Below, in pieces: positions 15,143 through 33,727 of a DNA stretch of 64,000 bases (positions are counted from its first letter, which is position 1; the number at the start of each line of letters is the position of its first letter). This DNA is from an uncultured Ardenticatenaceae bacterium. Its GTDB lineage: Bacteria; Chloroflexota; Anaerolineae; Promineifilales; Promineifilaceae. The position numbers and the translations under genes were made by a program. The stretch is taken from positions 143,292-207,291 of the forward strand of contig CAZIKT010000001.1 in the NCBI GenBank assembly GCA_964539885.1, given 5' to 3'. The notes below the pieces were generated by a model, which saw only the letters and a list, made by a program, of their open reading frames with translations, ran no database searches and was not told the DNA's origin.

Positions 15143-16306
15143 TCAGCCGACACCGGCGTACTTCTGCTCGGTCTGTATCGGCAGTTCAAATGTGATTAAG
15201 GTCCCCAGCCCCGGTTCCGCCTCAATATAGACCGCGCCCCCCAGCTCATCCGCACGCGCGCGCATGTTAGCCAATCCGTGGCCGGTCATGAAGGCCTGAT
15301 TCTCGCTATCAAAGCCGGTTCCATCATCCTGCACTTGCAGCGAGATCACATCCTCTCGTTGGGTCAACCTGATCAACACGTTGTCGGCTCGGGCGTGCCG
15401 GGCGACATTGGCAAGCGCCTCTTGCGCCGTCAGAAAGAGCGCCCGAGCGACGTTGGGCGGAAGACCACCAGCCGCGGGGGGCGGCACATGCATGATCACC
15501 GGCACCATCGTATTCGCCTGAAACTCGCGAGCCAGCCGGGCAAGCCCCTGGCTGAGGTTGCCTTCGAACCGTCTGGGCCGCAAATCCAGGATGAAGTTGC
15601 GCATATCGCCAATGGCATCATTCAAGCCGGAAATAGCCCGGTCGATCAGCGCGATCGCTTCCACCTGATCTTCAAGAAGCAGAAGTCGCGTAGACTCTAG
15701 TGTCAGGCCGACCGCGTATACCGCCTGAATGACGCCGTCGTGTAAATCCATACCGATCCGCGAGCGCTCTTCGACTACCGCTAGCCGCCGAACCTGCTCA
15801 TAAAGGCGGGCGTTTTGAATGGCGATGGCTGCGTGCGCCGCCAGCAACTCAATGAGCCCTTGATCATCCGCCGTAAACGGCTCGCCGCCCTGCTTCTCCG
15901 TCAGATAGAGATTGCCGATGATGCCTTCAGCGCCTCGGATCGGCACGCCAAGGAAGGAGTGCATGCTCGGATGGCCGGGCGGGAAGCCAACCGATCGCGG
16001 ATCATCGGCTATGTTGGGAATCCTGATCGTCTTGCCTTCGGTTAGAATTGCGCCGAGAAGCCCCTGCCCACGGGGAAGGCGGCCAATACTGTTTACCTGT
16101 CCGAGTTCCATTCCCCCGTGCACAAACTCGACTAACTCCCCGTCCTGGTTTGGCACTCCCAGGGCTGCGTATCGCGCGTTAACAAGCTTCCGCGCCGACT
16201 CAACGATCTGGCGCAGAACCTTATCCAGCGCCAGATTAGAGGAGACTGCCAGGGCCGCGTCACTGAGAGCCTTCAGCGCGTACTCGTCGATTACTTGCTT
16301 CTGCAT
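15143..16306 (-). CDS. GAF-domain sensor histidine kinase (HisKA_3/NarL-partner type)
   Basis: N-terminal GAF (ARYAALGVPNQDGELVEF...GNLYLTEK), H-box RSRIGMDLHDGVIQ, HATPase N/G boxes (EALANVARHA, DDGTGF, GHGLANMRARA). Confidence 0.9.
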   Translation of the reverse strand: MQKQVIDEYALKALSDAALAVSSNLALDKVLRQIVESARKLVNARYAALGVPNQDGELVEFVHGGMELGQVNSIGRLPRGQGLLGAILTEGKTIRIPNIADDPRSVGFPPGHPSMHSFLGVPIRGAEGIIGNLYLTEKQGGEPFTADDQGLIELLAAHAAIAIQNARLYEQVRRLAVVEERSRIGMDLHDGVIQAVYAVGLTLESTRLLLLEDQVEAIALIDRAISGLNDAIGDMRNFILDLRPRRFEGNLSQGLARLAREFQANTMVPVIMHVPPPAAGGLPPNVARALFLTAQEALANVARHARADNVLIRLTQREDVISLQVQDDGTGFDSENQAFMTGHGLANMRARADELGGAVYIEAEPGLGTLITFELPIQTEQKYAGVG

Positions 16307-16317
16307 GAATACGTGAT

Positions 16318-16974
16318 CTAAGACAGGTAGTCCCTGAGGTGGTGCTGAACCGCGTAGGCTGCTGCTTCCGCCCGGTTAGATACTCCCAGCTTCGACAACA
16401 CACTGCTCACGTAGTTGCGTACAGTGCCCTCACTCAAGAAAAGCGCCTCGGCGATTTCCCGATTGGTCTTGCCTTCCGCTATGAGCGATAGGACTTGCAT
16501 CTCCTGGGGGGTGAGGTTTGTGAAGGCGGCCTTCTCCTCATTCTGGATGGCGCGGCGCATCTCGTTGAACACTCGCTGCGTCAACGACGGATCAAGCGTC
16601 GCTTCACCCTTGGAGGCCGCCTCGATGGCGCGGATGAGGTCTTTGCTGTCGATCTGTTTCAGAACATAGCCGGACGCGCCGGCGCGAATGGCCGAAAAGA
16701 GCAATTCGTCTTCCGCGTAGGAAGTCAGCATCACTACTTTGGTGGCCGGCAGTAAGCTGGTGATCTCCTTGCAGGCCTCGATGCCGCTGCCGCCCACCAG
16801 CCGGATATCCATCAATACGATGTCCGGCTCAAACTGAACGGCCTTTTCCACCGCCTCTTGTGCGGCCGCGGCTTCCGCGACCACCTCAAAGCCGGCATGT
16901 CGCTCCAACAGGCTCTTCAAGCCCAGGCGAACAACCTCATGGTCATCTACAAGCAGGATTCGCAAGTGAGTCAT
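16318..16974 (-). CDS. NarL/FixJ (LuxR-type) response regulator
   Basis: REC domain ([26 protein letters not shown]) plus a LuxR HTH ([45 protein letters not shown]). Confidence 0.9.
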
Positions 16975-18086: not shown

Positions 18087-18746
18087 TTACTGCAGAGACA
18101 AGAGGTAGGCTACCAGGTCGGCGATATCTTCTTCCGACAGCTGCTCACCATATAGTTGGTACATGATGTCGGCGACAAATCCATCCACAATGAAGGCGTT
18201 CGGATCCACGATCGATTCGCGCAAGTACTCCTCAGCCGACATTCCCGACACCCGGGAGGCTGCCGCCGTTCCAACGCCAAAGTGAGAAGGGCCAACGATG
18301 ACCGTGCCCTCCAGAGGAGAGTGGCAGGCCGCGCAGCCGGGGGCGCTGCCCGCTGCGCCAAGCGTTGGCAGGTTATAGAGTTGCTCACCGCGAACGGCAT
18401 CGCCAGCCGGTTCAGCGGTCGGCTCTTCGGTTGGCTCAGCGGTTGGCTCTTCGGTTGGCTCAACAGTCGCTACTTCTGTCGACTCGGCGGTAGGTTCCTC
18501 TGTCGCTTCAGCCATCGGTTCTTCTGTCGGCTCAGCCATCGGTTCCTCTGTCGGCTCAGCCATCGGTTCCTCTGTCGGCTCAGCCGTCGGTTCCTCAGTT
18601 GGCTCAGCAGCCTCTTCGTCCGCGCCGTTGTTTTCGCTGACCGCCTGGCCGTTGTTCGACTCGGCTGAGTTGTCGCCGCCCCCACAGGCGGCCAACACCA
18701 GGAGCAGCAAAAGTGTGAATGTAATCATCAACAACTTCTTCATCAA
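18087..18746 (-). CDS. monoheme class I c-type cytochrome lipoprotein with a repetitive acidic Pro/Thr/Glu linker
   Basis: Lipobox VLAACGG, a single CAACH site. The C-terminal domain is roughly 60% identical by eye to 17287..17733. The linker is built of AEPTEEP(T/M) units. Confidence 0.85.
   Translation of the reverse strand: MMKKLLMITFTLLLLLVLAACGGGDNSAESNNGQAVSENNGADEEAAEPTEEPTAEPTEEPMAEPTEEPMAEPTEEPMAEATEEPTAESTEVATVEPTEEPTAEPTEEPTAEPAGDAVRGEQLYNLPTLGAAGSAPGCAACHSPLEGTVIVGPSHFGVGTAAASRVSGMSAEEYLRESIVDPNAFIVDGFVADIMYQLYGEQLSEEDIADLVAYLLSLQ
18408..18608 (-). repeat. in-frame 24-nt tandem repeat (about 8 units) encoding an (A/V)EPTEEP(T/M) linker
   Basis: The plus strand shows repeated ggctcagccatcggttcctctgtc units with small variations. 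Confidence 0.9.
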
Positions 18747-19893: not shown

Positions 19894-22137
19894 GTGAGCG
19901 GGGGTGTCATGCAGGGCGAACCACCAGCAGGGCCGACCCACCTGAAACCAATCGCACGGAACTTACGCCAAATGTGCCGCCCTGGAGCGCGAGGCGGTCG
20001 AGCCTGGAAGGGCGCCTCAATCGGGGTAGCCGCCGCCTCGCTACTGATGCTCCTATGGGTAAGCCATTCTCTCTTTGCCGCTGCGGGGCCGCTTTATTTC
20101 GTCGCCGGCTTCCTGCTGTTCGTGCTGCTTGGCTTGGCGGCTGCCGGGATCGCCGTTGTCCTGCTGGCCACCCTCAACCGACTTCCCCGCGGCTATCAGT
20201 TCTGGCTGGTGGTTGGCGTCCTGGCACTCGCGCTGCCCCTGATCAACGTCCCGCTTCGGGGAGTAGCACTCCTGGTAGCCGCGGTGTTGCTCCTGTCGTC
20301 GATTGCGGGCGCGGCGCTGTGGGCGTGGTTGGATCCCCGCCGGAAGCCCTCGCGAGCCGCTCCGTTGGTGCTCGCGCTAAGTTCTGGCGGACTCCTGGCG
20401 GGTGCCGTCTGGTTGTTCCAGGTGAACACACACCGGCCGGCACAATCGCAATTCCAGCAGCAACCGTCAATACTTGAAACCGCCCTCCCGAACCCGGCAC
20501 TCCCGGGTGTTCGGGAGGTGCTTAGCCTGACGTACGGGAGTGGCGCGGATCGACATAGGCCGGAATACGGAACGCAGGCAATGCTTTTGACCGAGCCAAT
20601 TGACGGCCGTTCGTTTGTCAGCGATTGGAGCGCGCTGCGAACACAGTTCTGGGGCTTCAACCAGCGTGCAATGCCGCTCAACGGGAGAGTCTGGTACCCG
20701 GCAGGAGATGACACCGCCCCGCTGATACTGATGGTACACGGCAACCATGATATGGCCGATTTCTCTGACCCGGGTTACGCATACCTGGGAGAATTGTTGG
20801 CCAGCCGAGGGTTCATCGCGGTATCCATTGATCAGAACTTCCTGAACGGCTCCGCCGTCGGTGACATACTGGATATGGAACGCCTGAGCAACGAGAACGA
20901 CGCCCGGGCCTGGCTGATATTGCAGCACCTCGCGCAATGGCAGCGCTGGCATAATGGTGCGAACAATCCCTTCGCCGCGAGGGTTGATCTGAACAACATC
21001 GGCCTGATCGGTCACTCTCGGGGAGGGGAAGCGATTGCCGTCGCAACGCTCTTCAACTCGTTGGGGCGCTACCCTGAGAACGCGCGCGTCGCCTTCAATT
21101 TCGGCTTCAACATTCGCGCCGTCGCTGCCATCGCCCCTGTGGATGGGCAGTATTTGCCCGGCAGTCGACCAACCCCGCTGGAAAATGTCAGTTATCTTGT
21201 GCTACAGGGTTCCCATGACGCTGACGTTTCATCGTTTGCCGGCATCGATCAATACGCCCGGGTCAATTTCCCTGACGGCAGGCCGGATTGGTTTAAGAGT
21301 GCCATCTACATGTATGGTGCCAATCATGGGCAGTTTAACTCTACCTGGGGGTCGCTCGACCGCACCCCTCCCCGTGGCCTGCTCCTTGAGCGCAGCGAGT
21401 TGCTCAGTGCAACCGACCAGGAGCAGGCGGCCGCCGTTTTCCTGTCCGCCTTCATGGAAACCATGCTGCGCGGTGAATCTGACTACCGGCCATTCTTTCA
21501 GGAAGCTTCGATAGGAGCCGCCTGGTTACCGGCGACAACCTACATCACGCAGTACAGTGATCCCTCATACCATTACCTGGCTACATTCGAGGAAGACGTC
21601 GATGTGCTGACGGGCACGGCGCCGGGTGTGAGCATGAACGCCACGACCCTCACCACCTGGCGCGAACGAGCCATACACAGCAAGTGGGGCAGCCGGCAAG
21701 ACCATGCTGTCTACCTCGGCTGGGATCGCGAGCGAGCATCGCAGATGCCGACCTTCACCCTGTCTATGCTGTCGCCCCCGGGTTCACTGTCGAAGGACAG
21801 TGTTCTCCTTTTCTCTTTGGCCGATGATCGCGAGCCGGAGGAAGATCTTGCCCCACTGGAATTCACCGTTGAACTAAGCGATCGCTTCGGAGCGCGCGTA
21901 ACATCCCAGTTCGGTGAGGAGCAATTCCTTTCGCCTCCGCTGGTTGTGCCACTCGTGAAACTTGGGCTGTTCACCGACCTGGAGCCGGCCGAACCGATAC
22001 TCGCAAGTTTTCGACTGCCACTGGCTGACTTTACGGGTGATGACGCATTCCAGCCAGAGGCTCTCTCGACGATACGGTTGCTCTTTGACAGGTCGCCGGC
22101 CGGAGACGTGATCCTGGATAACATTGGCTGGCAGTGA
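19894..22137 (+). CDS. membrane-anchored alpha/beta hydrolase (multi-TM N-terminus plus large extracytoplasmic domain)
   Basis: Five to six N-terminal TM helices. Hydrolase core with ILMVHGNHD and nucleophile elbow GLIGHSRGGEA. The start is ambiguous (GTG 19894 or ATG 19909). Confidence 0.7.
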   Translation: MSGGVMQGEPPAGPTHLKPIARNLRQMCRPGARGGRAWKGASIGVAAASLLMLLWVSHSLFAAAGPLYFVAGFLLFVLLGLAAAGIAVVLLATLNRLPRGYQFWLVVGVLALALPLINVPLRGVALLVAAVLLLSSIAGAALWAWLDPRRKPSRAAPLVLALSSGGLLAGAVWLFQVNTHRPAQSQFQQQPSILETALPNPALPGVREVLSLTYGSGADRHRPEYGTQAMLLTEPIDGRSFVSDWSALRTQFWGFNQRAMPLNGRVWYPAGDDTAPLILMVHGNHDMADFSDPGYAYLGELLASRGFIAVSIDQNFLNGSAVGDILDMERLSNENDARAWLILQHLAQWQRWHNGANNPFAARVDLNNIGLIGHSRGGEAIAVATLFNSLGRYPENARVAFNFGFNIRAVAAIAPVDGQYLPGSRPTPLENVSYLVLQGSHDADVSSFAGIDQYARVNFPDGRPDWFKSAIYMYGANHGQFNSTWGSLDRTPPRGLLLERSELLSATDQEQAAAVFLSAFMETMLRGESDYRPFFQEASIGAAWLPATTYITQYSDPSYHYLATFEEDVDVLTGTAPGVSMNATTLTTWRERAIHSKWGSRQDHAVYLGWDRERASQMPTFTLSMLSPPGSLSKDSVLLFSLADDREPEEDLAPLEFTVELSDRFGARVTSQFGEEQFLSPPLVVPLVKLGLFTDLEPAEPILASFRLPLADFTGDDAFQPEALSTIRLLFDRSPAGDVILDNIGWQ

Positions 22138-22382: not shown

Positions 22383-23666
22383 ATGAAAGCTCGGTTTCGT
22401 CTTCCTGCAATCTTGCTTATGCTGTTGGTTGCCGCCTTGATAGGGGGATGCAGAGAGCCTGCGCCGGATAGTGGGCCGGTCGGACCTGCGGGGCCGCCCG
22501 GACCGATGGGGCCGGTTGGTCCCGCCGGAGAAAACGCGTCGGCCAGCCAGCAGTACGTCGGCTCCGAAAGCTGCGGCTCTTGCCACGAGGACCAATACGC
22601 TACCTTTGTCCTGTCCGGCCATCCCTACCAGCTGACCAAGATTGAAAACGGAGAGCCACCGGTATTCCCTTATGATGAGATAACCGACGGCATCCCCTCT
22701 CCGCCGGACGGCTATGAGTGGGCCGATGTCTCCTACGTCGTGGGCGGTTATGGTTGGAAGGCGCAGTTCCTGGACCTGGACGGCTACATCATTGCGGGAG
22801 ATGAGGAGACTGCCACCCAATACAACTTAGCCAATGAAGATCTGGAGTTGCCGGCTGGCTGGGTCCCCTATCATTCCGGCGAGCAACTATCCTACGACTG
22901 CGGCACCTGCCATACGACCGGCTATCAGCCGGAAGGTCATCAAGATGCCTTGGAGGGAATTGTGGGCGTCTGGGCCTACCCCGGCGTCCAGTGTGAGGCG
23001 TGCCACGGGCCGGGCAGCCTGCATGCCGCCGATCCCTATGGAGTCCGCATGGTCCTCGATCGCTCCTCACAGATGTGCGGCGATTGCCACATGCGCGACA
23101 ACCCGGCGCTGATCGACGCCGGCGACGGCCTTGAGCAGAATTATCAGCAATATGACGACCTGTACAACTCCCGCCATTTCGCCATTAGCTGCGTGACTTG
23201 CCACGATCCGCATGCCGGCGTGCGCTTCACCGACCCGGAGGCAACGAGCGCACAGGGTATTCGGCAATCATGTGAGAATTGCCATTGGGCGCAGGTCATA
23301 CAGAAGAATGAGCGCCGGCACTTCAACCTGACCTGCACCACATGCCACATGCCGGCCATGGCCGTCTCCGCGCAATCCATTGCGGAGGAATTCAGCGGCG
23401 ATATTCACTCCCATCAATTCGCCATCAACACGGACCCGAACGCGCCGCAGTTCAGTGAAGACGGCAGTCAGGTAATGCCGTACATCACGCTGCAATATGC
23501 CTGCCAGCAGTGCCATAACGGTTCCTTTTTCAGTGAGCAGGACCTTGTGACGCTGTCGGAGATGGCCCGTGACTATCACGAGCCGGCGACCGCCACGCCT
23601 ACGCCGGAACCGACGTCGACAGTCGAATCAGGCGAGGAGACGCCCACCCCCACGCCGACTCCGTAG
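22383..23666 (+). CDS. octaheme c-type cytochrome lipoprotein with an N-terminal collagen-like stalk
   Basis: Lipobox LIGGC. Eight CXXCH sites (CGSCH, CGTCH, CEACH, CGDCH, CVTCH, CENCH, CTTCH, CQQCH). First site resembles the cytochrome c554-type context (C..CH...Y......GH). Pro/Thr-rich C-terminal tail. Confidence 0.9.
   Translation: MKARFRLPAILLMLLVAALIGGCREPAPDSGPVGPAGPPGPMGPVGPAGENASASQQYVGSESCGSCHEDQYATFVLSGHPYQLTKIENGEPPVFPYDEITDGIPSPPDGYEWADVSYVVGGYGWKAQFLDLDGYIIAGDEETATQYNLANEDLELPAGWVPYHSGEQLSYDCGTCHTTGYQPEGHQDALEGIVGVWAYPGVQCEACHGPGSLHAADPYGVRMVLDRSSQMCGDCHMRDNPALIDAGDGLEQNYQQYDDLYNSRHFAISCVTCHDPHAGVRFTDPEATSAQGIRQSCENCHWAQVIQKNERRHFNLTCTTCHMPAMAVSAQSIAEEFSGDIHSHQFAINTDPNAPQFSEDGSQVMPYITLQYACQQCHNGSFFSEQDLVTLSEMARDYHEPATATPTPEPTSTVESGEETPTPTPTP
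22473..22535 (+). repeat. collagen-like Gly-X-Y repeat (7 triplets) within the octaheme cytochrome
   Basis: GPV GPA GPP GPM GPV GPA GEN, starting 7 residues after the lipobox Cys. Confidence 0.85.
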
Positions 23667-23700: not shown

Positions 23701-25425
23701 ATGCGCAGGCTCTTCAGGGGTATCAAGCATTTCTTTCTTCCTCCACCAGGGAGTTCAGTCTGGCTGCGCATCCTGCCGTTTGTCGTCCTTGGTGTACTGA
23801 CAGTATTTGTGCTCAGCGGCTCGTCTTACGCCTGGACGTACACCAACTCGCCTGAGTTTTGCGGGAGCGCCTGCCACACGATGCCGCCCAACTACAGCAC
23901 CTATCTGCAATCGCCGCACGCCCGCGTGCAGTGCGTCGAATGTCATATTGGCCGGGATGTGATCACCACCCAATTCACCCGCAAGGCTGGCGACCTGCGA
24001 CATGTCTACTACACGATTACTCAAGACTTCGAGTATCCCATTCATTCCGAGGCGATGCGCCCGGCGCGGGACAGCTGTGAAAGATGTCATTTCCCCGAGA
24101 AGTTTTCCGACGATAGCCTGCGCCTTATCCGCGACTATGAGGGTGAAGACAACTCGCTGCTCACCACGCATCTACTGATGAAGACCGGCGGTGGCAGCCA
24201 ACGCGAGGGCCTTGGACGGGGCATACATTGGCACATCGAAAACGAGGTGTGGTATCTGGCCGAGGACCAGCTCGAGCAAGACATTCCTTATGTGCGCGTC
24301 GTAGACGAAGATGGGCAGATTTCGGAATTCTACGACATTGAATCCGGCATCACGCCGGATGATGTTGCCGGCAAAAGCCTGGAGCTGATGGACTGTATCA
24401 ATTGCCACAATCGCGTGACCCACACCGTGCCCAGCCCGGAAGACGCCATCGACCTGGCCTTCACGAGCGGGCAGTTGTCCAGAGACCTGCCGGCAATTTA
24501 CGATGCCGCGTATGAGCGGCTCAGTCAGATCTACACCGACAGTCAGGCCGCGGAAGAGAGCTTTGACTCCGTGGTGGATTTCTATGCCGAGGGGTATCCG
24601 GACATCTACAGTGAGCGCCAAGAAGAAATCGAGGCGATCCCGGCCGTGCTCGCGGACCTCTATAGTCAGATGGTGTTCGGCGACCAGCGCGTGGATTGGA
24701 AGACACATCCAGATAATCTGGGCCATGTCAACTCTCCCGGCTGTTTTCGCTGCCACGACGGCAAGCATCTGAGCGGCACAGGGGAGGCGATCCGCCTGGA
24801 GTGCAACCTGTGTCATTCAGTGCCGATCATCAGCGATGAAACCACCCTGGTCACTAACCTGGAACTTGTGCGCGGGCCGGAACCGCCGTCGCACATTCAT
24901 AGCAGTTGGATAGCGTTGCACGGTAAAGCCATTGATTCCTCATGCGCGGCCTGCCATGAACCGGCCGATCCGGAAATGGATTACACCGCGCTGGAAGGCA
25001 GACCTCCCAATGACGGCTCTTTTTGCGGCAATGCGGCCTGTCATGGCCCTGACTGGGAGTATGCCGGCTTCGACTCCCCGGCGCTGGAACCCTTCCTGGA
25101 GCGCCAGCTTTACATCCTGCAAAACACCAGCCCTTATCTGCTGGAAGGCGTGCCGCGCACATATGACAGTACTTTCAAAGCGCTGTTCGATGGACGTTGC
25201 GTCTTCTGCCATGGGACGGAGGAGACCAAGGCAGACCTGGACCTGAGTAGCTATGAGGGGATCATGCAAGGCGGCAAAAGCGGACCCGTCATCGTTCCTG
25301 GCGACCCGGAGAACAGCGCACTGATCGCAGTGCAATCGGCCTCCCAGGAGCACTTCGGGCAGGTATTGGATGACGAATTGGTCGCGCTGTGGGAATGGCT
25401 TTTGGCGGGGGCGCCTAGGGAATAA
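23701..25425 (+). CDS. NapC/NirT-like membrane-anchored multiheme cytochrome with a C-terminal Planctomycete-cytochrome-C-like domain
   Basis: N-terminal TM helix, then a NapC/NirT-like context (SPEFCGSACHTM...SPHARVQCVECH). Seven CXXCH sites plus CGSACH (CX3CH) and CGNAACH (CX4CH). C-terminal FDGRCVFCHG...LDLSSYEGIMQGG...VPGDPENSALI. RBS GGAGG lies before the ATG. Confidence 0.9.
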   Translation: MRRLFRGIKHFFLPPPGSSVWLRILPFVVLGVLTVFVLSGSSYAWTYTNSPEFCGSACHTMPPNYSTYLQSPHARVQCVECHIGRDVITTQFTRKAGDLRHVYYTITQDFEYPIHSEAMRPARDSCERCHFPEKFSDDSLRLIRDYEGEDNSLLTTHLLMKTGGGSQREGLGRGIHWHIENEVWYLAEDQLEQDIPYVRVVDEDGQISEFYDIESGITPDDVAGKSLELMDCINCHNRVTHTVPSPEDAIDLAFTSGQLSRDLPAIYDAAYERLSQIYTDSQAAEESFDSVVDFYAEGYPDIYSERQEEIEAIPAVLADLYSQMVFGDQRVDWKTHPDNLGHVNSPGCFRCHDGKHLSGTGEAIRLECNLCHSVPIISDETTLVTNLELVRGPEPPSHIHSSWIALHGKAIDSSCAACHEPADPEMDYTALEGRPPNDGSFCGNAACHGPDWEYAGFDSPALEPFLERQLYILQNTSPYLLEGVPRTYDSTFKALFDGRCVFCHGTEETKADLDLSSYEGIMQGGKSGPVIVPGDPENSALIAVQSASQEHFGQVLDDELVALWEWLLAGAPRE

Positions 25426-25544: not shown

Positions 25545-27797
25545 CTAAGGCGCCGGTTCTTCAGGGACGACAACCGGCGGCCGGCTCAGCGCTGATACAT
25601 CCCCACCCACACTGGCAATCGAATCGTAAAGGATCTGCATCACGTAATCGCCGTTGTGGGCGAACGCGCCGGGATCCTTCTGCGAATACTGATAGTTGTA
25701 GGCGGCGCGCAACAGGGCCGGCGTCCAGGATGCATACCCTTCGGTATCGGCGGCAGACGCTACACCATCGGCGTCCGCATCCACAAAGAAGTATGGATAG
25801 CGAGCCGGGTTGTACACAATCGGCGTGCCGATCGTGTTAGCCGCGTAACCTTGGAATGCGGCGTAGAGTAACTCGGCTAGTGTTGCCACCTCGCCGGCGA
25901 TGCCTTCGGTTACGTCGCCATCCCCATCGTAATCGACCGGAGTTTCATCATCATCGTCGAAGCGGATGTTGACCAGATCGTCCATGGTCTCGACGCCCTC
26001 GTGGCAGTCAGCGCATTCCTCGAACTGCACTTCCAGGGTATGGGTACCGTGACATTCCGTGCAGGCGTTGAAAGCGTTAACGTGTTCGTTTTGGCCGTTG
26101 TACTCCAGGCCCTCGAACTCATATGCCCCTTGAGCCTCAGTTCCAAAGAGCGTCGCGCCGGCGGCGAAGTAATGGATGTTGCGGAATCCCAGCGAATCCG
26201 ACACCTCGTCATCGCCCAGCTCACCTATCGCGCGATTCACACTCGCCGTGGACTCGCGCCCCTGGTGGCAATTCAAGCAGAGGTTGCTGCCGGGATCGTC
26301 CAGGGCTAGCTCGGCTCCACTTGGGAACGTGACTGACTCAACCTCATAGATGGTGAACTCGCCCACATCACTGTGGCAGGTGGAGCAGGCCAAGCCGTTG
26401 GAAGCCGGCTGGTTGATGGCCACGTTCTGCTCGATGTACAGCGGCAGGCCGGCAGCGCTGTGGCAGCGGCTGCAGCTCCCCGGCACGATCCCACCGTCTT
26501 CTTCGCCGTCCCAGTGCCGGAAGGCTTCTTCGGAGCCGGCGAAGTGCCCATGATCAATTCGCCGCAGGGCGGCCAAATCCACCGGGGCTGCGATCGATCC
26601 ATTCAGATCTTCGATCGAGTCGTACAGCAACTGGATGATGTATTTGCCGCCATGTGCGAAGCGACCAGGATCCTTCAGGGACACCTGGTAGTTGTATGCG
26701 GCGCGGGTCAGGCGCGGAGTCCAGGTGGCATAGCGCTCGGTCTCATCTTCGCCGATGGTACCATCGCCGTTGGCGTCGATGAAGAAGTAGGGATGGCTAT
26801 CGCCGTTGTAGCCAATGGGCGAGCCGGCTACCTCGTTTGCATATGCTTGCACTGAGGTGAGCAGAATGTCCCGCATGCCGTCAATCTCGAATGCAATGCC
26901 TTCGTCCATGTCGCCGTCGCCGTCGTAGTCAACCAACGACCCCGGCATACGCACGTCCTGGAAATCCTCAACTGTTTCCACGTCAGTGTGGCATGCAGTG
27001 CACTCCTCAACCTGCACCTCCAGGGTGTGCGGGTCATGGCAAGAGTTGCACGTGTTGTACCCATCTACATGGTCGTAACGGGCATCATATGATTTCCCCG
27101 CGTATTCATAACCACCCTTCGCCAGCGTGCCGTACTGCGTCGCTGCCGCCGCGTAGTAATGGATATTGGAGAAACCGAGGTCTTCACTCACTGTGTCGGG
27201 TGCCTCCGCCAATCCCGCGTCCGCGATCTTCTGATCAACAGAAACGGTAGATTCGCGACCCTGGTGACACTCCATGCAGCGCGACTCATCACCCAATCCG
27301 GTGACTTCAAGCCCTGATGGGAAGACCACACTGTCCTTGGTAATCGTTACGTCATTGTGGCAGGCAGCGCACTCCACCGTGGTACCGATCGGCGCCGCCA
27401 CATCCACCACACCGGCTTCCGATCCATCGAGACCAAGGAAATCCTGGTATCCCGGCGTGCTGTGACACTTGGCGCAACTCGTCGGAATCTCTGCTGGATC
27501 CTCTTCGTTCCAGTGGACAAACGCCTCGGCGGTGGTGTCGTTGTGCGGAGACGATTCCCAGCGCTCGACGAAGACCATCTCGTCCGCCGCGCTGACTTCG
27601 GGCACCGGACATTCTTCACATACCGGCGCCTCAACTTCCGGGCACACAGCCTCTTCCACGTCCGGACATTCCGCCGCGACTTCCACCTCCACAATACGTG
27701 TTACTTCTACCGGCTCTTGCTGTTCGTCGCTACATGCCGCCAGAGCCAGGGCGACGAGGAGCAGTAGCGCCATGATAATCAGGCTTTTTCGTTGCAT
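25545..27797 (-). CDS. decaheme c-type cytochrome lipoprotein built from a tandemly duplicated pentaheme module
   Basis: ATG at 27797, lipobox LALAAC. Ten CXXCH sites (CAKCH, CAACH, CMECH, CNSCH, CTACH / CSRCH, CSTCH, CLNCH, CTECH, CADCH). The two halves align residue-for-residue over about 310 aa. Confidence 0.9.
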   Translation of the reverse strand: MQRKSLIIMALLLLVALALAACSDEQQEPVEVTRIVEVEVAAECPDVEEAVCPEVEAPVCEECPVPEVSAADEMVFVERWESSPHNDTTAEAFVHWNEEDPAEIPTSCAKCHSTPGYQDFLGLDGSEAGVVDVAAPIGTTVECAACHNDVTITKDSVVFPSGLEVTGLGDESRCMECHQGRESTVSVDQKIADAGLAEAPDTVSEDLGFSNIHYYAAAATQYGTLAKGGYEYAGKSYDARYDHVDGYNTCNSCHDPHTLEVQVEECTACHTDVETVEDFQDVRMPGSLVDYDGDGDMDEGIAFEIDGMRDILLTSVQAYANEVAGSPIGYNGDSHPYFFIDANGDGTIGEDETERYATWTPRLTRAAYNYQVSLKDPGRFAHGGKYIIQLLYDSIEDLNGSIAAPVDLAALRRIDHGHFAGSEEAFRHWDGEEDGGIVPGSCSRCHSAAGLPLYIEQNVAINQPASNGLACSTCHSDVGEFTIYEVESVTFPSGAELALDDPGSNLCLNCHQGRESTASVNRAIGELGDDEVSDSLGFRNIHYFAAGATLFGTEAQGAYEFEGLEYNGQNEHVNAFNACTECHGTHTLEVQFEECADCHEGVETMDDLVNIRFDDDDETPVDYDGDGDVTEGIAGEVATLAELLYAAFQGYAANTIGTPIVYNPARYPYFFVDADADGVASAADTEGYASWTPALLRAAYNYQYSQKDPGAFAHNGDYVMQILYDSIASVGGDVSALSRPPVVVPEEPAP

Positions 27798-27923
27798 AGT
27801 TCTGCGCCCCTTTATTATCATTCACTCCCGGGTCCGGAGGGCATGCGCACAGGGCAGGTGCTCCTGACAGACCCTTTTCCTGTACAAGGCCGGCTGACCA
27901 ATGACCGGCGTGACGACCATCTC

Positions 27924-28769
27924 TTATGGCGCCGGCGTAACGGTTGGCACCACAGTAATGATGGCCGTCTCTTCAAAGGTAAATGCCCAGATTATTACGA
28001 CTAACAGCAGTGCGCCCACCACCAAGCTGAACGCAAAGAAGATTCGCTGCCGGTGTCGCAATACGGGCTTCTCAACGATTGGCCACGGTTCGCCTCCGGC
28101 ATCTAGCCGCTCCAGTTCCAATGCATGTTCCTCCTCCATTTGCTTACGCGACATCGTGCCTGTAAACATACTGCGATTAAAATGCTTGATGTGCACATTG
28201 TACATGTGCCAGACGATCAGGGCGGAGACAGCGAGGATGGCCTCCCAGCCATGCGCCGCCTTCGCCATGGGAATGAGTTCGCCGGGAAAGATAGAGGTAA
28301 AGGCAATGGGGTTCCACATGATGAAGCCGGTAATGGTCATCAGCGCGGTACCCCAAAGTACAGCCCAGTACTCGAATTTTTCGCCGAAGTTGAACTTCAG
28401 CATCTTGGGCGGCTCCTCCTGCAAACCCAAATTGTGTTTGACGGTGCCCGTTAAGTCGTCCAGGTCCTTGCGGGTCGGGAACATCGGCATGCGTTCCCGC
28501 CGGACAAAAAAGCGATATGCAGCCACCCCCAAACTATAGATTGAGCCGAGCACCAGCACGACCGCGGCATAATGGTGAATGATGCGCACATTGGTGATGC
28601 CCCCCAACCAACCGACAAGCGTCTGTGCCCACGGTTGAGTCTCCCACATTTGTGGCAGGCCCGTGATCGCCAGAGTTGTGAAGCTGAAGATCAGTATGAG
28701 ATGTTCGATCCGCGCTCCCAGGCGGAATCGGGGGTAATGGGTTGGTAACTCGCGGGTGGACTCACTCAT
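27924..28769 (-). CDS. b-type cytochrome membrane subunit (FdnI / Ni-Fe-hydrogenase cytochrome b-like)
   Basis: Four core TM helices with conserved His (IEHLIL, IIHHYA, AAHGWE, VWHMYN), plus an extra C-terminal TM helix. Lies immediately downstream of the 14-heme gene. Confidence 0.8.
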   Translation of the reverse strand: MSESTRELPTHYPRFRLGARIEHLILIFSFTTLAITGLPQMWETQPWAQTLVGWLGGITNVRIIHHYAAVVLVLGSIYSLGVAAYRFFVRRERMPMFPTRKDLDDLTGTVKHNLGLQEEPPKMLKFNFGEKFEYWAVLWGTALMTITGFIMWNPIAFTSIFPGELIPMAKAAHGWEAILAVSALIVWHMYNVHIKHFNRSMFTGTMSRKQMEEEHALELERLDAGGEPWPIVEKPVLRHRQRIFFAFSLVVGALLLVVIIWAFTFEETAIITVVPTVTPAP

Positions 28770-28800: not shown

Positions 28801-30477
28801 TCATTCCAGTTGGCGACCAAAACGCAGCCGAACGCGCCGGAAGATATCCGTCGCAACCAAGAAACCGAACCCGATCAGCGTCATGGGAATAACGATGCGG
28901 TAGAAGGTTTCAACCAGGAAGACGCCGGTGTTGTTTTGCAGCGACGGCTCGTAATGACTGGTCCAGGCTGCCGGGAAGTTCTCCGTAGCGTTCGGGTGAC
29001 ATTTCTGGCACGTCTCTAGCAGGTTAGCCTGGATACCGTTTTCGGGATCATCGGGCCGCCGAATGTCGTGCACGCCGTGGCAGTCATAGCAGACCGCCTC
29101 GTTAAAAGGAGCGTTCGGATCTGCGGTCGGATCAAACAACACCGCGGAAGTGCCGTGAAAATCTGACACGTAGGTGTCAAACACGCTGGTGGAGATCTCA
29201 TATTTGGTCATCAGCTCTTTATCAGCGTGGCAACGCGCACAAATCAGCGGCGACCGGGAGCGATAAAGGGTGGTGGTGGGGTCCTGGATATTGTGCACGC
29301 CGTGACAGTCTATGCAGGTGGGCACATCCGGATTGCTGTTTTGCGCCAGCGCCTCACCGTGAACGCTGTCCACGTACTCGTCATGGATCTCCTGGTGGCA
29401 TTGGGCACACGTCTCTGAGATGCGTTGTCGAGGCTGATTCGGCGGCGGCGTATCGTGCGCGCCGTGACAGTCGGTGCAGACCGCGCCATCCAGATTGCCG
29501 CCGGCGACCAGGGCGCCATGTACATCATCTACGGCCTTCTCCGCATTCTGTTCGTGACAGCGATGGCAAAGCAGGCTGTTGGCGACAGTGTATTCACGCA
29601 AGCTGCCGGTGTTTGCCGGCGCCTCATGCGGAAATCTGTAGTTCTCGTGACAGTCTGTGCAATTCAGTGGTTGCCAGGGATTATCAGCGCCATGCACTGA
29701 TCCACCAAAGTGGGTCCGATCGACGGTTAGCGATAGCTCCTCCCCATTATCCAGCGTCAGTGTACGCCCCGGCTGATCGTGACAGGCCAGGCAATACTGG
29801 TTATCCACCTGGGACGTGAATAGGCCGTCTCGGATGATTGTCTCAAGGATTTCCGGGTCGGTTTGTGGGACGTCGTTTTTGGTATGACAGTTGACGCATG
29901 CCTGGACACCTTCCGGAGTGGTGAGTGTGGCAACCGGCATCACCTCGTGCGAGCCATGACAATCCGTGCAGACGACTGGATTATCGCTATCCGGGCCGGC
30001 GTGCGCGGTTTCATGCGGCTGCTGATGACAACTCAAACAACTCTCTGAGCGAGCGATCTGGAAGCTGCGCAGATCCGCGGCATCTGTCGGCCCGTGCGGA
30101 AACTGATAATCGCCGGCCGCATGACAACTTGTGCAATTGAGCGGCTCTTCGGCCGACGCGCCGTGAACGGAATCGGCCAATGTCTGCGGGTCCACGGCTA
30201 CCGGCAGCTGCGACCCGTCCGGCAACTCAAGGATTGCCTGTGAACCCTCATGGCAGATCCGGCATTGCAGGTCATCGCCGGGGTGAGGCAGGGGTTCGGC
30301 CGATTGCGCCAACACGCTAGCGACCGGGAGAGCGGACGGTGCAGGGCTATACTTCGTCGGCGACGGATCGCTGGCGGCGCGGCCGGCAGCAAACCACAGC
30401 GCCGATATGAGGAGTACCAGCGCCAGTGCCATACTCACACTGATCAGACTACGATTTCGTCGCTGTGACGAGCCCAA
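28801..30477 (-). CDS. 14-heme c-type cytochrome with a signal peptide and a C-terminal TM anchor
   Basis: 14 CXXCH sites, many in the doubled-CXXCH context C..CHG.H (CTDCHGSHE, CTDCHGAHD, CIDCHGVHN, CYDCHGVHD). The TTG start at 30477 has a GAGGAGAG RBS 9 nt upstream. C-terminal helix IVIPMTLIGFGFLVATDIF. Confidence 0.9.
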   Translation of the reverse strand: MGSSQRRNRSLISVSMALALVLLISALWFAAGRAASDPSPTKYSPAPSALPVASVLAQSAEPLPHPGDDLQCRICHEGSQAILELPDGSQLPVAVDPQTLADSVHGASAEEPLNCTSCHAAGDYQFPHGPTDAADLRSFQIARSESCLSCHQQPHETAHAGPDSDNPVVCTDCHGSHEVMPVATLTTPEGVQACVNCHTKNDVPQTDPEILETIIRDGLFTSQVDNQYCLACHDQPGRTLTLDNGEELSLTVDRTHFGGSVHGADNPWQPLNCTDCHENYRFPHEAPANTGSLREYTVANSLLCHRCHEQNAEKAVDDVHGALVAGGNLDGAVCTDCHGAHDTPPPNQPRQRISETCAQCHQEIHDEYVDSVHGEALAQNSNPDVPTCIDCHGVHNIQDPTTTLYRSRSPLICARCHADKELMTKYEISTSVFDTYVSDFHGTSAVLFDPTADPNAPFNEAVCYDCHGVHDIRRPDDPENGIQANLLETCQKCHPNATENFPAAWTSHYEPSLQNNTGVFLVETFYRIVIPMTLIGFGFLVATDIFRRVRLRFGRQLE

Positions 30478-30565: not shown

Positions 30566-31858
30566 CTAGGGGGTCGGAGTTCCCTCGGTCGGCGCTCCTT
30601 CTTCGATCACTTCTTCAGCCGACGCCTCAACCGGAGGATTATGATATCCTACCGCGGTTTCGATCAACTCCTCATCCGTCTTGTCTCTGCCCAAGCCATC
30701 CGGGTTGTGGCAGCTCCGGCAAGAAGAATTCAGCGCGAGGCGTGGATGGGCCACTGTGCCGTCTTCGTTGAACTGCTCGATCTGGAGCGGGTCAATGGAC
30801 ACTTGATGCGTGCGCATATCGCCTGTGAACTTGGCCGGATCGCCGGCAGCAACCTGGATTATCCTGGGCATGTGGCAGGAAACACAATTCACGTCTATTC
30901 GAGCGTGCACTTCGTTATTCTGGTTCTGCACCTGCGCGAAATGACAGTTCTCGCAATTGACAATTGTGGTAGGCAGTTCAGCTTCACGAAGCTGGACTAC
31001 CCCGGTATGCGGGTCATGACAGACCACACAGTCGAGTATCACATGCTTGCCTTCAAAGAGGTCCTGATACTGGTCGTGATGCTGGATGAAGCCGTCGCTG
31101 CCGGCGACTTCGTCAACCGTTCCCCGGGCGTGACAGGCGGCGCAAGCTGCACTGTCCCGGTCCACGACTGGACGGAAGGAAAGCGGGTGATTGGCATGCA
31201 GGCTGCCGGGGCCGTGACATTCCTCACAACCGATGCCCGCTTCCGCCCAGGTGCCGGTTATGCCCGGCAGACCATCCTGGTTGCCGGATGAGGAGTAGCC
31301 GGTCGTGTGGCAGCGGCCGCAATCGTATGAAATCTCCTCTCCCGGGTGATAGGCTACCCATTCGTCGCGAGTCTCCAACTCGTCATTAGGAAGATTGTAC
31401 TGCGTGGTGGCTTCGGCGCTGTCTCCGGTAATGATCAAGCCGTCCAGACCGATAAAGCGAGCCTTCCAGTTATAGCCGCCTATTACAAACGCTATGTCTT
31501 CCCAGGTGTATCCCTCCGGCGGGTCAGGCACTCGACTGAATGGATAGGTCGGCTCCTCTCCATCAACGACCGCGTTGAGCTGGAAATTGTGCCCACTCAG
31601 AGCGTAGATATCAAACAATTCCTGGTGGCACTCTGCGCAGGCTTCGCTTCCAATGTATTGCGCCGGCTCGAAACTCACCCCGTCCGCTCCTGCCGGCCCG
31701 GACGCGCCGGGCGCTCCATCTCTGCCGGTGGGTCCAGGAAGGCCCTGTGGTCCCTGCGGACCTGGAGGTCCTTGCGGTCCTTCCTGCGGGGCGCAGGCGG
31801 TTATTAACAGGCCTACAGCGATGAAGATGATCCAACTAGAGAGATGAATGCGCCTCAT
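30566..31858 (-). CDS. octaheme c-type cytochrome lipoprotein with an N-terminal collagen-like stalk (paralog of 22383..23666)
   Basis: Lipobox LITAC. Eight CXXCH sites (CAECH, CGRCH, CEECH, CAACH, CVVCH, CENCH, CVSCH, CRSCH). Roughly 50% identity by eye to the other octaheme protein. RBS GGGAGGGAA. Confidence 0.9.
31673..31780 (-). repeat. collagen-like Gly-X-Y repeat (12 triplets) within the octaheme cytochrome
   Basis: [36 protein letters not shown], starting 4 residues after the lipobox Cys. Confidence 0.9.
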
Positions 31859-32275: not shown

Positions 32276-33727
32276 TCAAAGCATTGCCAGCGCTTCATGA
32301 ATCCTGACCATCGCCAGCGTATCAAGGCCGCAATACCTGCGCAGTTCATTCATCAGGAACTCCCTCTCCAGCTGATCTTCACAGGTGATCATTTGTTCCC
32401 AGGCGGCCTGCGCCTGGGAACCGTTCTGCACAATCAGATGTTCGTAGCTTAGCTCAGGCACGATCACCGGCAGCACCGACTTCAGCGAATTCGATTTGCC
32501 GAAGCCGTAATGGTGATAACTGCGCTTGATCAGCTCGTATTGGTCCCACAATCGGCCGATGATATGCAGCAACCGCTCGCTATGCGCCGGAAAGGCCTCA
32601 GCCAATTCAAGCAGCCGCGACCGCTCAAAAGAGGCGTAGTAAACAACTATGTGTCCCCGTTCTCCAATATCGTTCAACAACGACGTGACCAGCGTTTGTC
32701 GCGGATCTGTGCCGTCCAAGTGTAGGAACTCGCGGTGCTCAAGTGCGCCGTTTTCGTGCAGGATATGGCAACTGTACTGGAATGGTACGTTCTGATAGGG
32801 CCGGCAGCCGGCGTAGATCGGTACCGGGTACTCGATGGTCTCAAAATCAAGGAAGTGCAGCGGGAATTCCAGCCCTGCCAGCTCGCCGCGAAGCGGCTCG
32901 TAGTCAATCTGTACCAACCGCTGATTGATACGGGAGGTGAAGGTGCGCTGATTCTCCGTAAGCGCGAAGTCAGCCGGCACGTCTGCCAACGACAGTATGC
33001 CCATTGCGCGAAGGCGCAACTCCCGTTGGCCGCCCAAACGTGGAATGTCATAGATGGTAAGGCCCGGTACGAGCTGCCAGCAGTGGTCATATAGCGGGCA
33101 GCGATCCGGCCTCTGACAGTGGCGGCCGACGTCAATCTGTGGAGCTCGAGGCTGGGAATTGACCTCGCGCATTGCCGCTATGTCCTCCGTTATCCGACCT
33201 GTCATCGACACAGCCTGCTCCGTCACGTCAGCTAGTACGAACAGGTCCTCAAGGTCAGGGTACCGGCACTGTCCGTTGATATGCATGATGCTGACCTGGC
33301 TCACCGGCATCCCGGCCTGGCGCAACACGTAGTATTGGAAAGCGACATCCGGCAAGTGCTCTTCCTTAACGCTGAGCCCTGCCTTAACCTCGATCAGATG
33401 CCAGCTCTGATCCCGGCGCAGCAGGATGTCACTTCTACATAACAGGTCTTCCGCAGCGAATGTCGCCTGGAAAAGCACGTTCGCCCCCGCATCCAGAGCG
33501 TCCCGGGTACGCGAGACCATTTCCGCCGGCTGCGGCTCATAAGGAATGAGCACACCTCCTAAGAATCGGTCGCGAGCCGTGCGATCTACGTCCTGTCCCA
33601 GGCGCATCCGGCGCAGGGCGGCGTCATCCGGCGGCGCGACCAGGTCGGGCTGATACTCCTCAAGCCAAAGTCTCTTTGCGCAGCGCAGGAAGTTCATGTA
33701 GCGGCCCTTGGTGATGATCTTGCTCAC
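32276..33727 (-). CDS. DUF2779-like protein (putative PD-(D/E)XK-type nuclease fold)
   Basis: The N-terminus (SKIITKGRYMNFLRCAKRLWLEEY) resembles the DUF2779 family start as I recall it. IEVK motif and a C-terminal Cys cluster. Not verified by search. Confidence 0.6.
   Translation of the reverse strand: MSKIITKGRYMNFLRCAKRLWLEEYQPDLVAPPDDAALRRMRLGQDVDRTARDRFLGGVLIPYEPQPAEMVSRTRDALDAGANVLFQATFAAEDLLCRSDILLRRDQSWHLIEVKAGLSVKEEHLPDVAFQYYVLRQAGMPVSQVSIMHINGQCRYPDLEDLFVLADVTEQAVSMTGRITEDIAAMREVNSQPRAPQIDVGRHCQRPDRCPLYDHCWQLVPGLTIYDIPRLGGQRELRLRAMGILSLADVPADFALTENQRTFTSRINQRLVQIDYEPLRGELAGLEFPLHFLDFETIEYPVPIYAGCRPYQNVPFQYSCHILHENGALEHREFLHLDGTDPRQTLVTSLLNDIGERGHIVVYYASFERSRLLELAEAFPAHSERLLHIIGRLWDQYELIKRSYHHYGFGKSNSLKSVLPVIVPELSYEHLIVQNGSQAQAAWEQMITCEDQLEREFLMNELRRYCGLDTLAMVRIHEALAML

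Follow-up and report, generated by a model that had tools for sequence, protein, structure and literature searches.

Uninterrupted Gly-X-Y triplets separate the lipid anchor from the heme domain in two octaheme cytochromes (proteins A and B) that are encoded in a 64,000-nucleotide stretch of DNA from an uncultured Ardenticatenaceae bacterium of the phylum Chloroflexota (contig CAZIKT010000001.1 of assembly GCA_964539885.1, positions 143,292 to 207,291; hereafter the window). Conservation among orthologs indicates that this Gly-X-Y segment is a genuine, selected collagen-like element. The favored reading, to which a probability of about 0.58 is given, is that the segment builds a lipid-anchored, probably homotrimeric collagen-like rod of about 6-10 nm, which would serve as fixed-length spacer and oligomeriser for an extracytoplasmic electron-transfer head.

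Both parts of this architecture are known, namely the collagen-like repeats of bacteria and the multiheme cytochromes that occur as lipoproteins or as envelope proteins; their combination was not found in the literature searched. Nothing relevant came from full-text searches that paired collagen-like with multiheme or c-type cytochromes; cytochromes and lipoproteins are both absent from a 2022 review of prokaryotic collagen-like proteins, and the combination is not mentioned in a paper on extracellular electron transfer in Ardenticatena or in another on the evolution of multiheme cytochrome modules. An earlier examination of the window, made without database searches (the sequence-only reading), had supposed that collagen-stalked multiheme cytochromes were undescribed, and the literature searched holds no description of them.

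The Gly-X-Y tract and its conservation

Protein A (427 amino acids; coordinates of this and other features in Table 1) starts at an ATG that was assigned by homology (position 22383; N-terminus MKARFRLPAILLMLLVAALIGGC...). Its lipobox (...VAALIGG-C23, with the Cys23 codon at 22449-22451) is followed by seven residues (REPAPDS) and then by the tract itself, which translates as GPVGPAGPPGPMGPVGPAGEN and comprises seven Gly-X-Y triplets without interruption; the first of a total of eight CXXCH motifs lies at residue 64. The sequence-only reading had described seven uninterrupted triplets right after the lipobox Cys and ahead of an octaheme domain. The number of triplets, their continuity and their place between lipobox and heme domain are borne out by the translation, with eight CXXCH motifs downstream, whereas the direct contact with the lipobox Cys is not, as seven residues intervene. 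In most orthologs these seven positions hold two additional Gly-X-Y triplets; in protein A they are degenerate, with Glu at -39 and Pro at -36 (numbered from the first heme Cys) in place of Gly, and yet the 41-residue spacing described below is kept. In paralog B, which shares 45% identity with A, the lipobox (...GLLITA-C22) is followed by four residues and then by twelve triplets, so that the recurrence of the stalk in the paralog, which had also been claimed, holds. Both proteins combine a signal peptide with a lipobox of invariant Cys, and both tracts, of seven and twelve triplets, have the uninterrupted Gly-X-Y pattern of the Pfam family Collagen (PF01391).

A set of 104 ortholog sequences (55-66% identity) was aligned gap-free on the first heme Cys. 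Gly is found in 100% of the sequences at positions -33, -30, -27, -24, -21, -18, and -15, in 92% at -36 and in 63% at -39, and the lipobox Cys at -41 is present in all of them. The X position is occupied by Pro in 52-100% of the sequences depending on the position (72% of positions overall), while the Y positions are variable (V/L/I, A/P/T, M/V/L/I, and others); among the orthologs of A the beginning of the core, GPVGPAG, is unusually fixed (V 80%, P 100%, A 100%). Selection thus maintains the Gly periodicity, and the preference for Pro at X is that of bacterial collagens. When the seven Gly codons were compared between 8 genomes, 141 of 196 pairwise comparisons differed synonymously and 0 nonsynonymously, which argues that conservation acts on the protein and not on a DNA repeat; conservation of a repeat at the DNA level was rejected, the Gly codons being synonymously scrambled between genomes. 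The proposal that the tract reflects selection rather than chance low complexity is upheld by the fully conserved Gly and the synonymous-only codon changes, and the absence of the periodicity in orthologs, which the sequence-only reading had named as the outcome that would speak against it, was not what the alignment gave: Gly is invariant at seven positions.

The length of the stalk is also maintained. Counted from the lipobox Cys, the first heme Cys comes 41 residues later in 100 of the 111 A-type sequences and 52 residues later in each of the eight B-type sequences, and in both types this spacing is kept even where the membrane-proximal triplets have lost Gly. Register and total stalk length are, to judge from these alignments, both constrained, unlike those of disordered linkers.

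The likelihood of such runs arising by chance was estimated from 100 second-order Markov simulations of the window, read in six frames and scored for runs of at least seven triplets; a mean of 0.01 runs is expected per simulated window and two are observed. Tandem Repeats Finder (TRF) reports weak 18-bp and 9-bp periodicity, the tract of A being a weak 18-bp repeat.

Recurrence of the stalk among multiheme cytochromes

A search of 5.8 billion proteins returned more than 1,872 homologs of the octaheme protein, and the same layout occurs in approximately 110 of the best 120 (55-66% identity), which derive from metagenome-assembled genomes (MAGs) of Anaerolineales, Promineifilaceae, and Ardenticatenaceae. 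Scanning a single genome for each GTDB species yielded 80 loci. A tract of 5-22 triplets is present in 37 of the 41 loci labeled as Chloroflexota (38 if L014, in which the gene is frameshifted, is included) and in only 1 of the 39 loci of other lineages, among them Methanoperedens, Nitrospirota, Proteobacteria, Bacteroidota, Planctomycetota, and Zixibacteria. In the stalkless homologs outside Chloroflexota the signal peptide runs straight into the start of the heme domain (YVGSxxCxxCH). The exceptions within Chloroflexota are two loci without any stalk (L012 and L022) and one with a PAPAPA-type linker (L044). When 1.84 billion cluster representatives were searched exhaustively with HMMER, 274 clusters matched at E<=1e-30, and at least five triplets were found in 25 of the best 150 of these, with a maximum of 41 triplets (P0376); at least one stalk-bearing cluster is from Myxococcota. 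A restriction of the feature to Chloroflexota was consequently dropped, since Myxococcota-type relatives also carry Gly-X-Y tracts. Between clades the number of triplets ranges from 5 to 41 and changes in whole triplets; A-type orthologs have 7-10 and B-type orthologs 11-14.

Two further cytochrome families were searched with their heme domains alone, which kept the Gly-X-Y tract from influencing the matches. The first is a hexaheme family of Bacteroidota (Labilibaculum, Ancylomarina, Draconibacterium, Maribellus, and Prolixibacteraceae; L066:3919-4977 (+), P0121-P0240), in which at least five triplets occur in 112 of the best 120 sequences. The tracts of this family have 5-13 triplets (mode 8), and the last triplet usually lies one residue before the first CXXCH. 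The second is a nonaheme family (Gemmatimonadota, Calditrichota, Eisenbacteria, and Krumholzibacteriia; L060:11503-12993 (+), P0241-P0360), with at least five triplets in 110 of the best 120 and tracts of 5-11 triplets placed directly at the lipobox (...GC-E-GDQGPAGP...). The chemistry of the X and Y positions varies, being Pro/Ala-rich in the octaheme proteins of the window, Asp/Thr-rich in Bacteroidota (GADGTDGVDG), and Glu/Gln-rich in the nonahemes (GDQGPAGPEG), which suggests that the common selected property is Gly-X-Y periodicity beside the lipid anchor. The layout of lipobox, Gly-X-Y tract and heme domain has evidently arisen independently in three cytochrome families.

Other lipoproteins and termini in the vicinity are built differently. 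A lipoprotein monoheme cytochrome c (18090-18746, minus strand) has an acidic (EPTEEPTA)n linker of about 80 residues, which matches Pfam PT, and the C-termini of A and B end in Pro/Thr/Glu-rich tails. Every open reading frame (ORF) with a lipobox and a Gly-X-Y tract in the window and in the 80 loci, which are centered on cytochrome clusters rather than genome-wide, encodes a multiheme cytochrome. The notion of a generic Chloroflexota lipoprotein linker was rejected for the regions examined, where neighboring lipoproteins use other linkers; Gly-X-Y thus appears to be a chosen design and not the default tether in this genome.

Two variations were observed among the relatives of the octaheme protein. 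In one set (P0380, P0383, P0404, P0413, P0423, P0455, and P0459) a Cys comes directly after the tract, and between it and the heme domain lie acidic repeats that contain Cys (CWDLDxxGxCDxxTEDxNGDG...); the P0413 cluster includes a protein from a Myxococcota MAG. These repeats match no Pfam family at E<=0.01; they resemble calcium-binding or disulfide-knot modules and could staple a trimer. The other variation is the tandem duplication of the octaheme module (forms among P0002, P0003, P0025, P0115, P0361, and L041:8522-12520), with 16-heme proteins of approximately 715 amino acids and an ORF of approximately 1,400 amino acids with 32 hemes in four modules. The Gly-X-Y stalk is absent from the 16-heme forms and from the L041 ORF.

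Possible role of the stalk and competing explanations

The heme domain of protein A belongs to the superfamily of NrfA, cytochrome c554, MccA, and OcwA. It matches OcwA in sequence (phmmer, E 1.2e-12), and its AlphaFold2 model, built from a 74-sequence alignment (predicted local distance difference test score, pLDDT, of 85 for the heme domain), matches OcwA (6I5B), MccA (4RKM), and OmhA (6QVM) in Foldseek with E values from 1e-11 to 7e-9, a probability of 1.0 and TM-scores of 0.40-0.52, the identity to OcwA and OmhA in the structural alignments being approximately 16-19%. About nine His residues outside the heme motifs are invariant or nearly so in the 74-sequence alignment, and compatible with these, the hemes would be mostly bis-His and suited to electron transfer rather than catalysis. 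Three long C-terminal helices mediate oligomerisation in NrfA, HAO, MccA, and OcwA (c554 and OTR also are without them). In the AlphaFold2 secondary structure of protein A these long helices are not seen, the only helices after residue 322 being H370-374 and H388-395, and no coiled-coil neck is seen either.

The closest matches in sequence and fold are OcwA of Thermincola potens (Foldseek E 1e-11, TM-score of about 0.47) and OmhA of Carboxydothermus ferrireducens, both of them envelope terminal electron-transfer proteins of the same superfamily in bacteria without an outer membrane. OcwA is the cell-wall terminal reductase of the Gram-positive T. potens, and OmhA, an undecaheme cytochrome of the S-layer, resembles protein A in joining a cytochrome to a dedicated anchoring module. 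They differ from protein A in having nine (OcwA) and eleven (OmhA) hemes instead of eight and in the lack of a lipobox with a collagen-like stalk; in addition, OcwA, a monomer or dimer, uses its C-terminal helices. The octaheme sulfite reductase MccA (Foldseek E 5e-11, TM-score of about 0.5) shares the fold family and the number of hemes, but it is a soluble periplasmic protein of approximately 660 amino acids with a Cu/heme active site, a CX15CH motif and neither stalk nor lipid anchor. MccA is reportedly a homotrimer, which would give a threefold assembly in this fold family a precedent.

The stalk itself resembles the collagen-like regions of Scl1/Scl2, BclA, Lcl, and Bucl8 in its uninterrupted Gly-X-Y, the preference for Pro at X and the absence of hydroxyproline. 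Such rods are known to present a globular domain in a "lollipop" arrangement (2022 review of prokaryotic collagen-like proteins), and in Bucl8 a collagen-like region is fused to a trimeric machine that is not an adhesin. However, the known bacterial members are adhesins, spore/exosporium or efflux components that are anchored to the wall or the outer membrane and that usually have tens of triplets (50-79 in Scl, according to the 2022 review), and none has a redox head or an N-terminal lipobox abutting the repeats. Braun's lipoprotein (Lpp) of E. coli, a homotrimer with a lipid anchor, also forms a rod, and the length of this rod sets the distance within the envelope. It shares with the proposed stalk the concept of a lipoprotein molecular ruler, although it is an alpha-helical coiled coil without functional head that has its anchor in the outer membrane and is joined to peptidoglycan. 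The sequence of anchor, triple-helical stalk and globular head is also found in MARCO/SR-A, collagens XIII and XVII, C1q, MBL, and synthetic collagen peptide-amphiphiles; these eukaryotic and synthetic systems are hydroxylated and longer, and serve immune or adhesive functions rather than electron transfer.

The favored mechanism goes beyond the observed anatomy, conservation, constant length, synteny, fold relationship and recurrence in other families, in that it infers lipidation, a triple helix, trimer formation, a role as ruler and a direction of electron flow. Proteins A and B would be exported by Sec, lipidated at the lipobox Cys and anchored on the outside of the cytoplasmic membrane (Chloroflexota are usually considered monoderm). 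After export, lipidation and heme attachment, three chains would join and their Gly-X-Y segments would form a parallel triple helix, nucleated and stabilized by the three clustered lipid anchors, the C-terminal heme domains and the very high content of Pro at X. Synthetic collagen peptide-amphiphiles offer an analogy, as lipidation reportedly stabilizes short synthetic triple helices. With 0.286 nm for each residue, the length of the rod would be approximately 6 nm for seven triplets, 7.7 nm for nine, and 10.3 nm for twelve, that is, about 6-8 nm in the A type and 10-12 nm in the B type. It would have two jobs. One would be the assembly of the heme domains into a 24-heme head, a task suggested by the apparent absence in protein A of the C-terminal helices through which the superfamily usually oligomerises; the other would be to hold this head at a fixed height over the membrane, as a molecular ruler. 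The sequence-only reading had likewise proposed a rod that would trimerise the cytochrome and keep its heme domains at a constant distance, which may serve to bridge a cell wall or sheath. The head of A could exchange electrons with the NrfH-like 574-amino acid protein encoded next to it and that of B with a cytochrome b, a 14-heme protein and a decaheme lipoprotein, and the electrons would then pass to acceptors or donors further out.

Several observations weigh against this mechanism. A tract of 7-9 triplets without hydroxyproline is shorter than the free (Pro-Pro-Gly)n peptides that are stable at ambient temperature, and the helix would therefore depend on tethering. Protein A has no match to Pfam Collagen at E<=0.01, and paralog B, with 25.2 bits, falls just below the gathering threshold of 27.2 bits. 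These scores are attributable to the shortness of the tracts relative to the model, which spans 20 triplets, and homologs of the octaheme family with longer stalks pass the threshold (29.9-39.0 bits; others 34-72 bits). The AlphaFold2 monomer model shows the tract as an extended segment with a pLDDT of about 55, and such a model cannot address trimers. OcwA, the closest solved relative, is a monomer or dimer with a small and weak interface. Finally, GPVGPAG may be strongly conserved for another reason, as a site of specific binding or of processing.

Much of this would suit a monomeric, semi-rigid spacer, in which a single-chain tract similar to polyproline II tethers a monomeric or dimeric cytochrome with no triple helix. 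Such a spacer would account for a tract in A of only seven triplets with neither hydroxyproline nor a Pfam Collagen match, for the monomer/dimer state of OcwA and for the extended, low-confidence segment of the model, and a fixed length fits any rigid spacer equally well. It is nonetheless unlikely, since a polyproline-II spacer needs no Gly at every third residue, whereas here Gly is kept in 100% of sequences although its codons are saturated with synonymous change; this genome and related ones, moreover, use PT-, PA- or acid-rich sequence where a plain linker suffices, and in relatives the tract grows to 13-41 perfect triplets and reaches significant Collagen scores.

It is less probable still, and we regard it as improbable, that the tract is a recognition or processing motif, in which GPVGPAG...GP.GP.GP.G would dock a partner (candidates being the NrfH-like protein, a component of the wall, sheath or S-layer, or a maturation factor, with a triple helix being optional) or would be a cleavage site of the collagenase type (peptidase U32-like) at which the cytochrome is released from its lipid anchor. 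In its favor, the X and Y residues of GPVGPAG are more constant than a purely structural collagen repeat would lead one to expect, as noted above, which such a motif could explain, and stalks of the A and B types each co-occur with a different partner module; however, the two other families and the clades outside the A type keep the periodicity and not the sequence, and a partial Pfam scan found no protease or collagen-binding gene beside the operons in the window.

The view that the tract is a neutral low-complexity or slippage-prone repeat without specific function, to which the GC-rich DNA, the weak TRF periodicity and the Gly-X-Y reading of the antisense strand lend some color, is effectively refuted by the two observed runs against 0.01 expected, the invariance of register and length over more than 100 orthologs, the exclusively synonymous Gly-codon changes and the independent presence of the layout in three families.

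Returning to the lipid-anchored rod, a wider form of it is put forward tentatively, at somewhat less than even odds: collagen-stalked, lipid-anchored multiheme cytochromes may constitute a widespread and undescribed class of at least three families, in Chloroflexota, Bacteroidota, Gemmatimonadota, Calditrichota, Myxococcota, and other phyla, in which the triple helix acts as length-calibrated ruler and trimeriser for electron transfer outside the cytoplasm. Stalk length (41 versus 52 residues here, up to 41 triplets elsewhere) would then be adjusted to suit the partner complex or the geometry of the envelope, and in families whose first CXXCH lies 1-3 residues past the last triplet the three heme-1 groups would come together where the rod ends, coupling the subunits electronically.

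The stalk bears on how electrons cross envelopes that lack the classical porin-cytochrome conduit of the outer membrane, notably in the filamentous Chloroflexota. A cytochrome head carried at a set height by a rigid rod with a lipid anchor would, if confirmed, be a new structural solution in which the number of triplets is a testable variable. To our knowledge, bacterial collagen has so far been known almost only from adhesins, spore proteins and phage fibers; the rod would give it a role in respiration and would provide natural examples of lipid-stabilized short triple helices, until now a concept of synthetic chemistry. The occurrence of the Bacteroidota family in cultured genera (Labilibaculum, Ancylomarina, Draconibacterium, and Maribellus) makes experiments feasible.

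Gene neighborhood and annotation

The genes for A and B belong to an island of cytochrome genes (Table 1), and the whole island occurs in the same arrangement in an Ardenticatenaceae MAG (L011). A-type genes lie directly upstream of the gene for the NrfH-like membrane cytochrome, whereas B-type genes are followed by those for the 14-heme cytochrome anchored by a transmembrane (TM) helix, the FdnI-like cytochrome b and the decaheme lipoprotein, so that each class of stalk length appears to be paired with its own membrane module, which for both A and B resembles a quinol dehydrogenase. A scan of the island for promoters and terminators showed no enrichment over shuffled sequences.

Table 1. Features of proteins A and B and of the adjoining cytochrome genes (positions counted from the first nucleotide of the window).
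Feature	Positions	Strand	Basis
Protein A, signal peptide and lipobox (MKARFRLPAILLMLLVAALIGG-C23)	22383..22451	+	All orthologs have a hydrophobic signal peptide ending [AG]C
Protein A, membrane-proximal part of the stalk (REPAPDS)	22452..22472	+	Ortholog alignment
Protein A, collagen-like core (GPV GPA GPP GPM GPV GPA GEN)	22473..22535	+	Translation, ortholog conservation
Protein A, octaheme domain (8 CXXCH), then Pro/Thr/Glu-rich C-terminal tail (residues ~400-427) and stop	22536..23666	+	AlphaFold2, PDB relatives
574-amino acid membrane-anchored NrfH/NapC-like multiheme protein, partner of A	23701..25425	+	Pfam, NCBIfam, synteny
758-amino acid lipoprotein decaheme cytochrome with acidic linker that is not Gly-X-Y, last gene of the B operon	25545..27821	-	Motifs, synteny
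281-amino acid FdnI/HydC-like membrane cytochrome b	27924..28769	-	Family matches, synteny
558-amino acid cytochrome with 14 CXXCH and C-terminal TM helix, conserved neighbor of B-type genes	28801..30477	-	Motifs, synteny
Paralog B, lipoprotein octaheme cytochrome, 430 amino acids; lipobox Cys22 at 31793-31795	30566..31858	-	8 CXXCH
Paralog B, twelve uninterrupted Gly-X-Y triplets	31673..31780	-	Translation

The partner of A has seven CXXCH motifs together with a CX3CH-x-M and a CX4CH, and a C-terminal PSCyt1 domain. It scores 51 bits with Pfam Cytochrom_NNT (cutoff 24.1) and 63.5 bits with NCBIfam NrfH, which is under the equivalog cutoff of 134; its Cytochrom_NNT match and its adjacency identify it as the quinol dehydrogenase-like partner of NrfH/NapC type in the A operon. 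At the first heme-motif site of NrfH (residues ~55-62) it carries CX3CH-x-M in place of CXXCH-x-M (CGSACHTM here, CGTTCHTM in the partner orthologs of L001-L006, L011, L012, L019, and L021), and for this reason it is considered a divergent member of NrfH/NapC.

The stalk is invisible in current annotation because gene callers truncate the N-termini and because some of the proteins are named "nitrite reductase c552" by PGAP. The JGI gene call for protein A (P0001, L081:2001-3161) begins at an internal Met42 inside the tract, and the signal peptide, the lipobox and four triplets (within 22383-22508 of the window) are missing from it. The metagenome behind the window is 3300009873, with the sequence on contig Ga0131077_10000063 (367 kb). 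The nonahemes are often annotated as "ammonia-forming cytochrome c nitrite reductase subunit c552", in some cases through PGAP naming. The strands opposite the tracts also read as Gly-X-Y-like sequence, on the minus strand at 22469-22522 opposite A (GPTGPIGPGGPAGPTGPL) and on the plus strand at 31749-31784 opposite B; these antisense runs were rejected as genes, being a by-product of GGN-CCN codon symmetry.

Among the remaining neighbors, a 747-amino acid ORF directly upstream of A (19894-22137, plus strand) has no Pfam match at E<=1e-4 and several predicted N-terminal TM segments. A GAF-HisKA_3 histidine kinase and a LuxR-type response regulator are encoded approximately 5 kb upstream of the island (15143-16974, minus strand), and a DUF2779 protein (32276-33727, minus strand) flanks paralog B.

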